DNA of 64,000 bases from Escherichia virus KFS-EC. The translations under genes and the position numbers were made by a program. Each line of letters opens with the position of its first letter. Within the stretch, counting starts at the first letter, position 1. Location: sequence record MH560358; one strand, written 5' to 3'. The notes beneath the pieces are model-generated. The model searched no databases, was not told the origin of the DNA, and worked only from the letters and a program-made list of their open reading frames with translations. Positions 12,154 to 16,425 of the stretch are shown here, in pieces.

Positions 12154-12279
12154 ACTTCACCTCATACATTCATAAACACAACAACGAATAATACAGTAAC
12201 AGTTATTAAAGCCATTTTCAACCCCATATTCATAATATTTTCTTCGCCTCACTATGACAGTAGCATGTCGATGCGTGCC

Positions 12280-12307
12280 ATTATAGGCATCTAAATCGCT
12301 CTGTCAA
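12280..12307 (-). promoter_or_regulatory. Sigma70-like early promoter (TTGACA / TATAAT)
   Basis: Minus-strand TTGACA, 16-17 nt spacer, TATAAT between hoc and the 12153 gene. Confidence 0.45.
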
Positions 12308-12312
12308 GCACT

Positions 12313-12343
12313 AAAAACAAAAAAGCCACCCCGAAGGATGGCT
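12313..12343 (-). terminator. Rho-independent terminator downstream of hoc
   Basis: AGCCATCC-ttcg-GGGTGGCT hairpin followed by a U-tract on the minus strand. Confidence 0.7.
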
Positions 12344-12354
12344 GATAGATTTCA

Positions 12355-13581
12355 TTAAGCAGGATGCGTTTCACGAATGCGTAGAACTCGATCTGACGTC
12401 TCTCGGTCCAGTTTATGGAACTCTTTGGAATGATACATGAAACCATTGCGAGATTCCATGCAAGTGCAATCACTATATTTTTCTTCCGCTGCCGCGATTG
12501 TCTCCAGATCTTTGGCGTACTTGCTGGTAGAATAAACTTCTCGGTCACGCCACTCTAACCCAGCCTTATTGTATTTAACGATCTCGTCAAATACCCACCA
12601 TCCAATGTAGATAAATGAAGTTTTGCGCCACGGGATCGGGTGTACGTAACGAAACATTTTATGAAGAGATTCAACAACTTCCATTGAACATTTTCTGCTT
12701 GCACTTGATGCAACTTCTACTGTTTCCTCTTCGATCTGTTGATATAGTTTAGCAACACACCAGAATTTGGCTGTGTCATCGTAAGTAGCACGCTCTTTGA
12801 ATAGATGACCGTCTGGCATGATAGAAAATCCTTCCAGTGCTTCGCCGTCCTCACTACCGATCAGAGTCGGTGACGGTTGCCCTTCGCGCTGCAAATACCA
12901 GTTATGTTTGATCGTCAATTTAGGCATACCGCTAGAATCGCCTACAATGTCCTCTGACACAACATAATTAAGTAAGATCTCCTTACCTAGTGCCACGGTC
13001 TTTGATTCCACCACATCCTGATCTACGTTCATTGTTGCCAGCATGATTTTAGTCGATGCGCTATCGGCTGAATCTTCCGACTCACCCCACACTTTTACAG
13101 TATACACGCCGTTTTTATCTGCTGTAAATTCTTTGATTGTAATATTCTGTTTTGTGTCTATAACTTCTTCGCCCTTACTCCAACTATAATGTAGTTCATA
13201 GTTGTCTGCTGGAGTCTTCCCACCCGAAAATTTTACTGTTGCATGTAATTCTACGTCTTTTTGTGATGATACGTAGAAATGCGGCGGTTCGGTGATATTT
13301 ACGATTAATTCAGCTTCTTCCATGAGGAAAACGTCAGATTCTACTGATGTCGTCGTATCGGTATCTTGTACCGTTACTTTATAGCTACCCGCATTTTCAC
13401 TTGTTGCGTCTGCTACAGTTAGCGTAGCTGTGCTATTTTCATGCGGTTGGTCGTCTTTTGTCCATGTATATGTCAAATTGCTGGGTAATGGTTCGTCACC
13501 CGTTACAGTCGCCGTTAAGGTGAAACCATCGCCAGCAAGAAAACATCTTTTGTCAGATTTAATTGATACTGTGAAAGCCAT
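12355..13581 (-). CDS. hoc: Outer capsid decoration protein Hoc
   Basis: N-terminal Ig-like repeats; C-terminus YVHPIPWRKTSFIYIGWWVFDEI...ESRNGFMYH matches the T4 Hoc capsid-binding domain. Confidence 0.85.
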   Translation of the reverse strand: MAFTVSIKSDKRCFLAGDGFTLTATVTGDEPLPSNLTYTWTKDDQPHENSTATLTVADATSENAGSYKVTVQDTDTTTSVESDVFLMEEAELIVNITEPPHFYVSSQKDVELHATVKFSGGKTPADNYELHYSWSKGEEVIDTKQNITIKEFTADKNGVYTVKVWGESEDSADSASTKIMLATMNVDQDVVESKTVALGKEILLNYVVSEDIVGDSSGMPKLTIKHNWYLQREGQPSPTLIGSEDGEALEGFSIMPDGHLFKERATYDDTAKFWCVAKLYQQIEEETVEVASSASRKCSMEVVESLHKMFRYVHPIPWRKTSFIYIGWWVFDEIVKYNKAGLEWRDREVYSTSKYAKDLETIAAAEEKYSDCTCMESRNGFMYHSKEFHKLDRETSDRVLRIRETHPA

Positions 13582-13750
13582 ATAAAGCCACTCCCATAGA
13601 AAATCCGAATTTAATTAATTGAAATAGTTGATTGCCATCAACCAGATAACCATTGCGAGATTCCAATACATGAGTATTAGAATAGTGATGCAACGAGGCC
13701 GAAATAGTATCGATCTCGTCTGGGTATTTGTTCTGTTTGATGTAATACAT
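13559..13750 (-). CDS. Hypothetical 63 aa ORF with Hoc C-terminus-like ESRNGY motif (possible gene remnant)
   Basis: Contains YYIK...ESRNGYLV resembling the last part of the Hoc capsid-binding domain; overlaps the hoc start; no ribosome binding site; same frame as upstream gene but separated by two stops. Confidence 0.25.
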   Translation of the reverse strand: MYYIKQNKYPDEIDTISASLHHYSNTHVLESRNGYLVDGNQLFQLIKFGFSMGVALYGFHSIN

Positions 13751-13846
13751 TGATTTTGTTAGACATGTAGTATCCTCTTTTTAATTGCATAACGGAACTA
13801 CAATTAAAATTATAACAAATATTTCACAACTTTTATCACCCAAAAA

Positions 13847-14572
13847 TTACTTGAGTGTGTGGAATTGGCTATGTTTAGTCTCTCGCACCTTGACAGACCC
13901 ATCGCGTTTGATATAATAGATCAGTGACTTGAGGGTGTCGTGTACATACGCGTGCGGGAAACGCTCTGGATACTTCTTCCAATCTGGAGTATTAACGATC
14001 CAGTCGAAAATCCACCACGGGCAGGAGTAGTAACCACGACCGCCACCGATCAAGCAAATGGTCGGACGGAAGCCAGTAAGATCGCAAAATGAATCAGTGT
14101 CATGTGCTGGGGAACGATGCTCTGCTTCGTTAGAGAAAATGTTGGCTACCGGAGATTCCACTTTAACTTCCGGTGCTTCTTCAACATCTGACTTAACTTC
14201 TTCGACCACTGGTTCAACTGCTGGAGATTCTTCTTTTGTTTCTTCAATGGCGATCTCAGGTTCTTTCATTGCTTCAACCAGAGACGGATCAACTTCGTCG
14301 AATACCACTTTATCATCTGCGGTGTCTGCTGCCAGAATAAGATCGTTAATACTGGTTCCTTCTGCCGGAGTTTCTTCTTCCATTTCGGAAGCCAGTTTAG
14401 TTAATTCGGTTTCTACGAACTCGATCATGTTCTCTAGTGATAAAGTCTTTTTGACCTTAATATCAAATTGTTTTGCGTAGTCAGCTAATTCTGTTTTAGC
14501 TGTTTTCTGTGCTTCTTTGTCGTCGGACGCCGCAATAGCGCGGAGTTCTTCGAAATATTCTTTATCAAACAT
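13847..14572 (-). CDS. Hoc C-terminal-domain-like protein with acidic low-complexity N-terminal half (inh position)
   Basis: C-terminal CPWWIFDWIVNTPDWKK...YYIK resembles the Hoc capsid-binding region; N-terminal half is Glu/Pro/Val-rich; occupies the T4 inh position. Confidence 0.5.
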   Translation of the reverse strand: MFDKEYFEELRAIAASDDKEAQKTAKTELADYAKQFDIKVKKTLSLENMIEFVETELTKLASEMEEETPAEGTSINDLILAADTADDKVVFDEVDPSLVEAMKEPEIAIEETKEESPAVEPVVEEVKSDVEEAPEVKVESPVANIFSNEAEHRSPAHDTDSFCDLTGFRPTICLIGGGRGYYSCPWWIFDWIVNTPDWKKYPERFPHAYVHDTLKSLIYYIKRDGSVKVRETKHSQFHTLK

Positions 14573-14606: not shown

Positions 14607-14642
14607 TTTGTATACTGTATTTATTGAGTGAGGCTATTCGCT

Positions 14643-16145
14643 ATGCAAGATATTAAAATTCACTTTCTGAACTACTCCCATGTTCAAATTGAATGTAGCG
14701 ATTCAATTTTATTAGAAATGCGAGATTATTTTAGTTTTGAAGTCGAGGGAGCGCGGTTTCAAAAAAGATTTAAGTATGGTGGATGGGATGGGCGTATTCG
14801 TCTTTTAGATTACAACGGAAAGCTGCCAATCGGCCTAACTAAAACCGTGGGAATCTTCGCTAAAAATATGGGCTATAGCGTATGGGTAGATCCTCGCTTA
14901 TTCGAAAAAGAACAAGTTACAGAAGAAGAAATTACAAAATGGTGTAATGACTTAGAATTATATTCCGGTGCTAACAGGATCACCCCGCATTGGTATCAAT
15001 CAAAGGCTGTCTTTGAAGGTATCCATCATAAACGCCGTATGTTAGTTTTGCCTACGTCCGCTGGTAAATCTGCGATTGCTTGTATGTTGTCTCGCTGGTA
15101 CTTAGAGAACTACGAAGGGAAAGTGCTGATCATCGTTCCTACCACGTCGCTAGTGCTGCAAATGCGTGATGATTTTGTTGATTATCGCCAGTTTCCGTAT
15201 GAAGCAATTCATACTATCATGAGCGGTACTAGTAAACACGTAGGTGATCGCCTGATCGTTGTTAGTACGTGGCAATCAGCATGTAAACAGCCTCGTGAGT
15301 GGTTCCAACAATTTGGGATGGTAATTGTTGATGAATGTCACAAAGCCACTGCTAAAAACCTGCTAAACATCGTTACTGATATGGCTCATTGCCAATTTAA
15401 GATCGGCATGACTGGTTCCCCTCGTGACGGGAAAGCTAACATGATGCAGTATGTCGGGCTTTTCGGTGATATTTCCAAGATCGTGAGTATTGACCGCCTG
15501 ATGGAAGAAGGGCAGGTGACAAAACTGAAAATTAACTGTCTTTTCCTTCGTTATACCGATGAGGAATGTAGCGCGGTTAAGGGGCGAGAATATGCGGAAG
15601 AGATCAAGTATATTACGTCTAACCCACGACGAAATAAGTTTGCTTGTAATTTGGCGCTAAAACTCGCTAAGAAGGGCGAAAACGTATTCCTTATGTTCCG
15701 CAATACTAAGCACGGAAAACTTATGTATGACGCGTTACAGAAGGTACACGACAAGGTTTATTATATTGACGGTGGAGTTAAGACAGAAGAACGTGATGAA
15801 TTTAAGAAAATGGCGGAGGGTGACACCGGGATCATTTGTGTTGCGTCTTATGGTGTATTCTCTACTGGTGTTTCAATTAAGAATTTGCATCATGTTATTT
15901 TCGGTCATCCAGTGAAGGAATCAACTATCGTTCGTCAGAGTATCGGTCGTGCATTGCGTAAACATGGTTCGAAAGACATTGCAACGGTCTGGGATCTTAT
16001 AGATCATCTGGCGGTGAAGACAAAGAGCAAGAATGCTAAGAAACAGTTTAGCCACCTTAATTATGCTCTTAAACATGCGCTTGAAAGAATAAAAATTTAT
16101 AACACCGATCGATTCGAATATGTCACGAAAACAATCGAGATTTAA
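14643..16145 (+). CDS. uvsW: UvsW DNA/RNA helicase
   Basis: Start moved to MQDIKIHF to match T4 UvsW (MDIKVHFHDF); GTGAGG ribosome binding site; helicase motifs (LPTSAGKS, DECH). Confidence 0.9.
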   Translation: MQDIKIHFLNYSHVQIECSDSILLEMRDYFSFEVEGARFQKRFKYGGWDGRIRLLDYNGKLPIGLTKTVGIFAKNMGYSVWVDPRLFEKEQVTEEEITKWCNDLELYSGANRITPHWYQSKAVFEGIHHKRRMLVLPTSAGKSAIACMLSRWYLENYEGKVLIIVPTTSLVLQMRDDFVDYRQFPYEAIHTIMSGTSKHVGDRLIVVSTWQSACKQPREWFQQFGMVIVDECHKATAKNLLNIVTDMAHCQFKIGMTGSPRDGKANMMQYVGLFGDISKIVSIDRLMEEGQVTKLKINCLFLRYTDEECSAVKGREYAEEIKYITSNPRRNKFACNLALKLAKKGENVFLMFRNTKHGKLMYDALQKVHDKVYYIDGGVKTEERDEFKKMAEGDTGIICVASYGVFSTGVSIKNLHHVIFGHPVKESTIVRQSIGRALRKHGSKDIATVWDLIDHLAVKTKSKNAKKQFSHLNYALKHALERIKIYNTDRFEYVTKTIEI

Positions 16146-16188: not shown

Positions 16189-16425
16189 ATGATTAGCTTT
16201 AAACGTTTTTTGGTTGAGGCCGCTATTGACGGTTTCATGCGTAAGATTTATTCTTGTAATACTATCGAGGGATTAAATGAACTTGAGGCATATTATGAGA
16301 AGCGCAAGAAAGAAACAGAATTGAAACCTGCTGATGATATTTCGATCCGTGATGCCATCGCCGGACGCCGTAAGCAATTGGAAGCGGACAACGAGCCAGA
16401 AGAGGAGCCGGAAGAAGATTTTTAA
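16189..16425 (+). CDS. uvsW.1: UvsW.1 small protein
   Basis: 78 aa ORF directly downstream of uvsW, as T4 uvsW.1. Confidence 0.75.
   Translation: MISFKRFLVEAAIDGFMRKIYSCNTIEGLNELEAYYEKRKKETELKPADDISIRDAIAGRRKQLEADNEPEEEPEEDF

Follow-up and report, generated by a model that had tools for sequence, protein, structure and literature searches.

A predicted Hoc-type C-terminal domain in Inh and the scar of a second hoc gene in the inh-hoc locus of Escherichia virus KFS-EC

We analysed the locus of the capsid genes inh and hoc in Escherichia virus KFS-EC (sequence record MH560358). The window is the whole stretch of 64,000 nucleotides that was analysed, and all coordinates below refer to it unless another record is named. 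Three open reading frames (ORFs) of 408, 63 and 241 amino acids occupy the minus strand at 12355..13581, 13559..13750 and 13847..14572, respectively, exactly as an earlier reading of the same DNA, made from the sequence only, had described them. The region 12355-14572 formerly contained three late genes in succession, all of which had a capsid anchor of one kind at the end. Very probably the present locus is explained by three things taken together: an inh orthologue with a C-terminal domain of the Hoc type, through which Inh is inferred to dock on the capsid; the scar left by deletion of a large hoc gene; and an intact hoc gene.

The 2.35 kb around inh, the 63-codon frame (below, ORF63) and hoc are 99% identical in nucleotide sequence to Shigella phage Sf20, and show 96.7-98% identity to several dozen members of the RB49-like genus Krischvirus, with 57 records matching in all. 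The order of genes on the minus strand is hoc, the small ORF, inh, with uvsW transcribed divergently from the plus strand. This is the order of T4 and Sf20.

The 241-residue ORF (13847..14572, minus strand) is, by sequence comparison, a full-length orthologue of T4 inh in the T4 position and no new duplicate of hoc. It can be aligned with T4 Inh from end to end (BLASTP, 43% identity, residues 1-241 against 1-226, E 4e-52) and covers the complete phrog_1051, 'minor head protein inhibitor of protease' (1-229 of 229 positions, E 1.4e-76). Both Pfam domains, Phage_Inh_N (PF26097) and Phage_Inh_C (PF26098), are present among the precomputed hits on the identical protein. As in T4, the gene lies between uvsW and hoc, on the hoc strand. 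The sequence-only reading had taken it for a Hoc-related gene standing in the place that T4 uses for inh; it is inh itself. The ratio of nonsynonymous to synonymous polymorphism (pN/pS) in inh is 0.18, which corresponds to strong purifying selection; here and below, polymorphism and diversity were computed over 10 Krischviruses. Local Pfam and NCBIfam scans, with a Pfam set that did not include the two Inh models, gave no match for Inh or ORF63, a sequence search of PDB gave no relative of Inh, and the best 120 hits of a homologue search with full-length Inh were only near-identical Krischvirus proteins. Inh is annotated as an inhibitor of the gp21 prohead protease or as a minor head protein; the inhibition and the presence in heads are known from annotation only. 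It is among the least understood head genes of T4, although T4 has been studied more closely than any other tailed phage, and its name rests on old genetics.

An AlphaFold (AF2) model of full-length Inh, built on 86 diverse homologues, has three parts. Residues 1-66 (14375..14572; Phage_Inh_N; phrog_1051 positions 1-61) are predicted to form a domain of three helices, with a predicted local distance difference test score (pLDDT) of 89-98. Residues 67-160 (14093..14374) are modelled with low confidence (pLDDT 56-76) and are acidic, with an isoelectric point (pI) of 4.05 and 28 aspartates and glutamates in 94 residues; this linker of about 95 residues is predicted to be disordered. Residues 161-241 with the stop codon (13847..14092; Phage_Inh_C; pLDDT above 96) make up the C-terminal domain, a putative diverged capsid-binding domain of the Hoc type. 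Thus, of the acidic low-complexity N-terminal half described in the earlier reading, the part at 67-160 is indeed an acidic linker, whereas residues 1-66 are predicted to be folded. The three-part architecture is shared with T4 Inh, the window protein being 15 residues longer in the linker. No Ig (immunoglobulin), PKD or other Pfam match was found in the N-terminal part, which consists of the three-helix domain and the acidic linker. Inh therefore shares the anchor of Hoc but is no Hoc, as it has no string of Ig-like domains.

A separate observation concerns the N-terminal domain (14365..14572), which also matches the C-terminal 50 residues of phrog_3259, an unrelated family of unknown function (E 7e-7; E 6e-11 for T4 Inh). 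It is thus possible that the N-terminal domain, like the C-terminal one, has been shuffled between proteins.

By profile comparison and structure prediction, the C-terminal domain of Inh is remotely homologous to the domain with which Hoc binds the capsid. The window Inh carries CPWWIFDWIVNTPDWKK at residues 184-200, and the same pattern can be recognised by eye in T4 Inh (WWIYQWI...DWK...IRETRNSSF) and T4 Hoc (WWVMDEI...DWK...VQESRNGYI). For the comparison, 87 Inh-type proteins with at most 50% mutual identity were gathered by phmmer with the C-domain as the query, 86 of them entering the profile. The Hoc set comprised 33 tails, drawn from 32 viral loci and, in addition, from T4, the window and Shigella phage SSG23; the Hoc profile for hhalign was made of 16 tails. 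The two profiles are aligned by hhalign with probability 96.9-97.1% and E 2e-10 to 7e-11 over 74 columns, Inh 165-241 being matched to Hoc about 306-386, that is, nearly the whole domain. The real pair scores 60, against 6-8 for reversed profiles and at most 16.7 for 100 column-shuffled Hoc profiles. The likeness to the capsid-binding domain of Hoc that the sequence-only reading had noticed in this C-terminus is thus significant at the profile level and withstands negative controls. A hidden Markov model (HMM) of the Hoc tails detects all 86 Inh proteins, with a best score of 35.5 bits, and, conversely, all 33 Hoc tails are found with the Inh_C HMM. The isolated C-domain of the window Inh matches three Hoc PHROGs in register (E 0.0025-0.042), and so does T4 Inh (E 0.008).

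The AF2 model of the C-domain alone (pLDDT 92.9; predicted template modelling score, pTM, 0.83) has the order strand, strand, helix, short helix, long helix, strand, strand, which is the topology of Hoc, where the loop lies between the last two strands. In a Foldseek search of 350,542 PDB chains the first rank is taken by 8t1x_X, the C-domain of T4 Hoc on the gp23* capsomer. The template modelling (TM) scores of this pair are 0.59 on the query (TMq) and 0.57 on the target (TMt), with a root-mean-square deviation of 3.6 Å over 84 columns, whereas all other chains have TM at most 0.27. The full-length model gives the same first rank. In BFVD, a collection of predicted viral structures, the best five hits are Inh, and ranks 6-30 are almost all Hoc-like, with probability 0.97-1.0.

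The C-domain of T4 Hoc (residues 281-376, PDB 8T1X) is a four-stranded sheet under three helices, and the sheet docks in a groove of the capsomer (Fokine et al. 2023, PMC10385173). W309 and W310 stand at the start of helix 1, and R300 forms a salt bridge to gp23. The conserved loop E355-S-R-N-G359 occupies the centre of the capsomer, in contact with each of the six subunits; N358 is bonded to R344 of gp23, and D313 holds R357 (PMC10385173). Conservation at the equivalent positions was counted over the 86 Inh sequences. W310 corresponds to W in 84 sequences, W309 to Y in 41 and W in 36, D313 to D in 62, E in 10 and Q in 11, and I315 to I in 79. Within the loop, E355 corresponds to E in 84 of the 86, S356 to T in 52 and S in 31, R357 to R in 77 and K in 5, N358 to N in 79, and G359 to S in 80. 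Thus the Inh family keeps an E-(S/T)-R-N-(S/G) loop between the last two strands and the aspartate partner of the loop arginine. The equivalents of Hoc Y304, W309 and W310 are retained as well. To sum up the likeness, the two domains have in common the predicted fold, the two tryptophans with which helix 1 begins, the pairing of Asp with the loop Arg, the motif DWK and the E-(S/T)-R-N-x loop.

Several observations weigh against this homology. Pairwise BLASTP between Inh and Hoc, both for the window and for T4, is not significant (E 0.8-1.3; 0.79 for the window C-terminus). A phmmer search with a single Inh C-domain against 1.84 billion protein representatives yields only the 87 Inh-type proteins and no Hoc. 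The Foldseek E-value to 8t1x_X is only 0.36, which is insufficient alone, and so the structural case rests on the rank, the TM-score and the agreement with the profile result. The loop of the window Inh is ETKHS, not the ETRNS of T4 Inh; a change from N to H in this loop is also seen in 6 of the 33 Hoc tails. The Inh equivalents of Hoc Y293, H295, R300 and W306, which make the largest peripheral contacts with gp23*, are non-conserved, fall into a gap, or are T or N. There are also differences between the two domains as such. They share about 18% identity, and the Inh C-domain is basic (pI 9.3), whereas that of Hoc is acidic (pI 5.1; PMC10385173). The payload is different as well: a helical domain and an acidic linker in Inh, Ig-like domains in Hoc.

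An Inh-type gene adjoins a Hoc-type gene in 28 of the 32 viral loci, mostly directly upstream and on the same strand. This is consistent with the anchor having been duplicated in tandem. Our literature search found no paper on Inh biochemistry or on any relation between Inh and Hoc, and the 2023 paper on the Hoc structure is silent on Inh (PMC10385173). While the genes themselves are known and annotated, the homology of their anchors is a modest but real new point.

The arrangement of the Hoc anchor varies among phages. In two IMG/VR loci (L034, 2986..4512; L010, 2971..3477) it is N-terminal and followed by other domains, about 400 amino acids in L034. The same arrangement is found in Enterobacter phage PG7, where an N-terminal Hoc anchor precedes a GDSL-like lipase domain (PMC10385173).

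Between inh and hoc lie the remains of another gene. An intact large hoc paralogue, encoding 846-847 amino acids with many Ig-like domains and the Hoc anchor, is present in six records (SSG23, SFHK24, Brandy, JK32, UPWr_E1, G2248), and in all six the order is inh, large hoc, hoc; the JK32 record already labels both genes hoc. The most divergent full-length match of ORF63, in SSG23, is the end of an 846-residue ORF directly upstream of hoc. The protein starts with MSDKINILHQT and has the C-terminus KYPDEIETIAASLHHYSNTHVLESRNGYLVDGTQLF (YVHPIPWRRTSFQYQGYWVLDEIDRCNREGLNWLEDFTHTKYPDEIETIAASLHHYSNTHVLESRNGYLVDGTQLF), followed by the stop.

In the window, both ends of the large hoc gene can be recognised, in order and at the same locus (13619-13766, minus strand). 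The 5' remnant (13731..13766) consists of the native ATG (13766) and 11 codons, MSNKINVLHQTE, and matches the intact start (MSNKINVLHQTEGP... in UPWr_E1). The native Shine-Dalgarno (SD) sequence AAGAGGA, a strong one, is retained at 13779..13773, 6 nucleotides upstream of this ATG. The 3' remnant (13619..13730, 112 nucleotides) contains the last 36 codons and the former stop codon, changed from TAA to CAA; this region and the end of the intact Brandy gene with its downstream sequence are identical in 140 of 149 nucleotides (about 94%). Comparison with the intact phages shows that the following segment (13582..13618) contains the degenerate remains of the large-hoc terminator and the ribosome-binding site of hoc (GGAG). 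At the terminator site the intact phages have GCCGACCTTCGGGTCGGCTTTT, from which the window has lost 13 nucleotides including one arm of the hairpin. This terminator is annotated in G2248.

All scar-bearing phages examined have the same junction, GAA followed by CAAATACCC. Compared with the UPWr_E1 allele, the primary deletion comprises 2,312 nucleotides, which on division by 3 leaves a remainder of 2 and hence a frameshift; 120 nucleotides of the 5' end and 112 nucleotides of the 3' end were left. Twelve records have a long scar of the Phi1 type, with 75 nucleotides more of the 5' end, where the annotated ORF168.1 (54 amino acids) represents the native frame. The 5' remnant of Phi1 is 111 nucleotides long and agrees with UPWr_E1 in 100 of 106 aligned nucleotides, while that of the window has 36. 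As the long and short scars share the junction, there was a single ancestral deletion and then a second, small one. The latter removed 75 nucleotides between CAGAA direct repeats and, together with a separate loss of 9 nucleotides, led to the 36 nucleotides of the window. The scar of the window totals 148 nucleotides and is frameshifted: read from the native start (13677..13766), it encodes a 29-residue peptide, MSNKINVLHQTE continued by QIPRRDRYYFGLVASLF, with the stop at 13677. The 57 matching records comprise 6 with the intact gene, 12 with the long scar and about 39 with the short scar, and an exact-pattern scan of IMG/VR for the scar found two contigs only; the comparison was based on annotated GenBank records. 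The large hoc gene is destroyed in this genome, and the scar is ordinary genome decay.

The ancestral state of the locus is a long multi-Ig Hoc (846 amino acids) beside a short Hoc (408 amino acids). It resembles the phages with two Hoc proteins, namely Serratia phage Muldoon and Enterobacter phage PG7 (PMC10385173) and the Krischviruses JK32, SSG23, Brandy, UPWr_E1 and G2248; in the window, however, the long copy is the 148-nucleotide scar. The identity of large Hoc proteins is 64-96% in genomes whose neighbouring genes are about 97% identical. The variability of large hoc and hoc suggests that the displayed Ig domains are under diversifying selection or subject to allele exchange. The scar indicates that the RB49 group had ancestrally two Hoc fibres, one of them highly variable. 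Two protein families of unknown function are accounted for at the same time. Residues 1-34 of the large Hoc of SSG23 match phrog_19377 (54 amino acids), which corresponds to the Phi1-type ORF168.1, and residues 810-846 match phrog_32100 (65 amino acids), of which ORF63 is a full-length member (E 8e-49). As they match the two ends of large Hoc, both 'families' appear to be pseudogene ends, artefacts and not true protein families.

ORF63 (13559..13750, minus strand) is an accidental open frame. Residues 1-7 derive from the 5' remnant of large hoc, translated in a wrong frame, residues 8-43 represent the genuine last 36 codons of that gene, residue 44 (Q) is the former stop codon, and the remainder crosses the former terminator and the hoc ribosome-binding site into the start of hoc. 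The frame carries ESRNGY at residues 30-35, and the earlier suggestion that it is a piece of a Hoc tail holds well: it is 33% identical to the resident Hoc tail over 39 amino acids (E 8e-8), matches three Hoc PHROG families (E 2.9e-6 to 4e-3), and in tblastn lands in the tails of annotated Hoc-like genes of about 250 other phage genomes. We consider ORF63 a pseudogene scar from which no functional protein is expected. This accounts for the inconsistent annotation of the ORF among about 50 genomes: it is called in Sf20, ELT3 and SAP, replaced by the 29-residue frame in JSE, and passed over in 011D4, JEP8 and Whisky.

Two facts weigh against a simple scar. The frame of ORF63 is uninterrupted in every genome with the short scar that was examined, and the nucleotide diversity of the scar, 0.013, is lower than the neighbouring synonymous diversity of 0.036-0.043. 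Moreover, the 80-nucleotide spacer between inh and the large-hoc ATG (13767..13846, minus strand) is invariant, with diversity 0.000 against the same 0.036-0.043 in the flanking genes. Given the low diversity of the scar and the invariant sequence upstream of the native ATG, a role as the leader of hoc is possible, and the scar DNA or RNA is possibly under some constraint. One might go further and regard ORF63 as a functional mini-protein consisting of the anchor only, a co-opted remnant that, for example, blocks or regulates Hoc sites. Apart from the low diversity, this is favoured by the frame being open in the roughly 39 short-scar records and called by several annotators, and by the retention of the ESRNG loop with its flanking strands, to which region the binding determinant of Hoc has reportedly been mapped by Sathaliyawala et al. 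(2010). However, no SD sequence precedes the ORF63 ATG (13750), which overlaps the native Asn-Val codons but not in their frame, 16 nucleotides past the strong SD-ATG that opens another frame. The 12 records with the long scar have no ATG in the ORF63 frame, and it is interrupted there by TAA and TAG. The anchor is incomplete, since only the last 36 residues of large Hoc remain and well over half of the domain, namely strands 1-2 and helix 1 with its tryptophan pair, is gone. The Hoc-tail frame has pN/pS 2.1, from the small numbers of 5 nonsynonymous and 1 synonymous events, and one of the former changes the motif itself, ESRNG to EYRNG in phage JSE. On balance, a functional mini-protein seems very unlikely. 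The location of ORF63 directly upstream of hoc and its resemblance to the Hoc tail could also be due to a tandem duplication in which only the 3' end of the neighbouring, resident hoc was copied. The identity of only 33% to the resident tail, the near-identity of the DNA to the end of the Brandy large hoc, and the match of the upstream 36-111 nucleotides to the 5' end of the same large hoc speak against this origin, and we discard it, as the least probable of all explanations considered.

The model offered by the sequence-only reading was a recent, lineage-specific duplication with a domain swap, by which a second displayed decoration protein came to stand in the place of inh, with the 63-residue ORF as a by-product. 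The region WW...DWK and the motif ESRNGY on which it was based are real, and Hoc anchors do recombine with other payloads (PMC10385173; locus L034). It is also true that the locus records duplication of a capsid-decoration module. On the other hand, the 241-residue protein aligns end to end with T4 Inh, and all 86 Inh representatives, as well as T4 Inh, have the Hoc-like domain, which points to an old relation common to the whole family, T4 included, and not to a local swap in Krischvirus. The earlier reading named as its refutation a global homology to Inh without a Hoc-like domain; the alignment with T4 Inh and Hoc that it proposed as a check gave the global homology, but the Hoc-like domain is there, and belongs to the T4 protein too. 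Finally, ORF63 has its origin in large hoc and neither in inh nor in the resident hoc, being what a frameshifting deletion left of a separate 846-residue paralogue. The recent-swap model is thus scarcely credible.

The homology to the Hoc anchor provides a concrete and testable hypothesis for where Inh goes. Inh retains the residues that form and position the loop with which Hoc reaches into the middle of the gp23* hexamer; hence it would most likely dock on the capsomer of the major capsid protein gp23 through its C-domain, in a Hoc-like way. We hold this docking to be about evenly balanced between right and wrong. Inh would then be a minor capsid-bound protein using, or competing for, the Hoc-type sites, and Inh, large Hoc and Hoc might be alternative payloads on one anchor. 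Docking on the capsomer would account for the label 'minor head/capsid protein' in some annotations. The loss of the peripheral contacts and the basic C-domain suggest that the exact site, or the state of the capsid recognised by Inh, may differ. Against docking, which is predicted from homology and models, stands the textbook or KEGG-style scheme that lists Inh with alt and the head-internal proteins (PMC13072308), at odds with an outer, Hoc-like site.

This grouping leads to another explanation, in which Inh is internal to the head and its C-domain is an old shared fold redeployed, for example, to bind the inside of the capsid shell, the scaffold or the gp21 protease. The non-conserved peripheral gp23 contacts and the difference in pI between the two C-domains are consistent with it. 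In addition, a [LIVM]-x-E motif occurs in the first 14 residues of 52 of the 86 Inh proteins, with the consensus M-x-D-x-x-[YF]-I-x-E(-L), which we take to resemble the capsid-targeting leader of T4 internal proteins with its gp21 cleavage site; this is a lead only. At this place (14546..14572) the window Inh has F-E-E (YFEE, against YIAE in T4 Inh) and not I-x-E. The equivalents of E355, R357, N358, the D313 partner and the tryptophan pair are the most conserved positions of the C-domain, which is hard to explain had the binding mode been abandoned. An internal Inh is a tentative alternative, quite possible but not the one we would choose. A bolder version of capsomer docking makes Inh a third kind of capsomer-centre ligand on a diverged Hoc anchor, which may bind proheads before their expansion or only some of the capsomers, inh, large hoc and hoc being an ancestral cassette of interchangeable payloads, even in T4. 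Loss of the peripheral contacts, which make Hoc specific for expanded capsids, may permit docking on proheads, and the docked C-domain would tether the acidic linker and the helical domain. If so, the reported effect of Inh on gp21 would be linked to the maturation state of the shell, and Inh would stay, as the 'minor head protein', at the sites that Hoc leaves unfilled. This version is rather unlikely. The homology of the C-domain extends the payload repertoire known for the Hoc anchor, which serves as a display platform, and engineered Hoc fusions could meet with competition from Inh or from its anchor.

The resident hoc (12355..13581, minus strand) is intact and encodes the canonical head outer capsid protein of 408 amino acids (phrog_1149, E 1.6e-81), with three Ig-like domains and the capsid-binding domain at about residues 305-390. 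Residues 1-303 match the crystal structure of RB49 Hoc (3SHS, E 8.8e-183), and the tail, 308-385, aligns with T4 Hoc 289-364. Its pN/pS is 0.78, against 0.18 for inh, so that hoc evolves fast. Just after the hoc stop there is a terminator-like hairpin (12324..12343, minus strand) with an 8-bp stem containing 5 GC pairs, followed by the T-run TTTTTTGTTTT; it is kept in the 10 Krischviruses. A 65-codon coding sequence of phage phiS, gp156 (locus L002, 1358..1555; window 12157..12354), is labelled 'head outer capsid protein', but it is an unrelated ORF over the terminator and promoter region of hoc, and the equivalent frame is closed in the window. The label is probably an annotation error.

No exact late promoter TATAAATA was found on the gene strand near inh or hoc, the spacer 13767..13846 included. 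The nearest similar sequence is AATAAATA upstream of inh, from which we draw no conclusion about transcription. Two perfect sigma-70 consensus promoters (12 of 12 positions) were observed in the region. One is on the plus strand at 13890..13917, antisense within the 3' end of inh (TTGACA, 16 nucleotides with TG, TATAAT). It is directed through inh to uvsW, and the surrounding 41 nucleotides are invariant in the 10 Krischviruses; it might serve as an early promoter for uvsW or give rise to RNA that is antisense to inh. The other is on the minus strand at 12280..12307, just downstream of the hoc terminator, and precedes small genes homologous to RB49 gp167 and T4 24.3; in phiS its equivalent has one mismatch in the -35 element. 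The uvsW gene itself is split into a helicase ORF of 505 amino acids (14628..16145) and a separate ORF of 78 amino acids (16189..16425) containing the UvsW C-terminus (Pfam UvsW-1), and is annotated alike in the record of Sf20.

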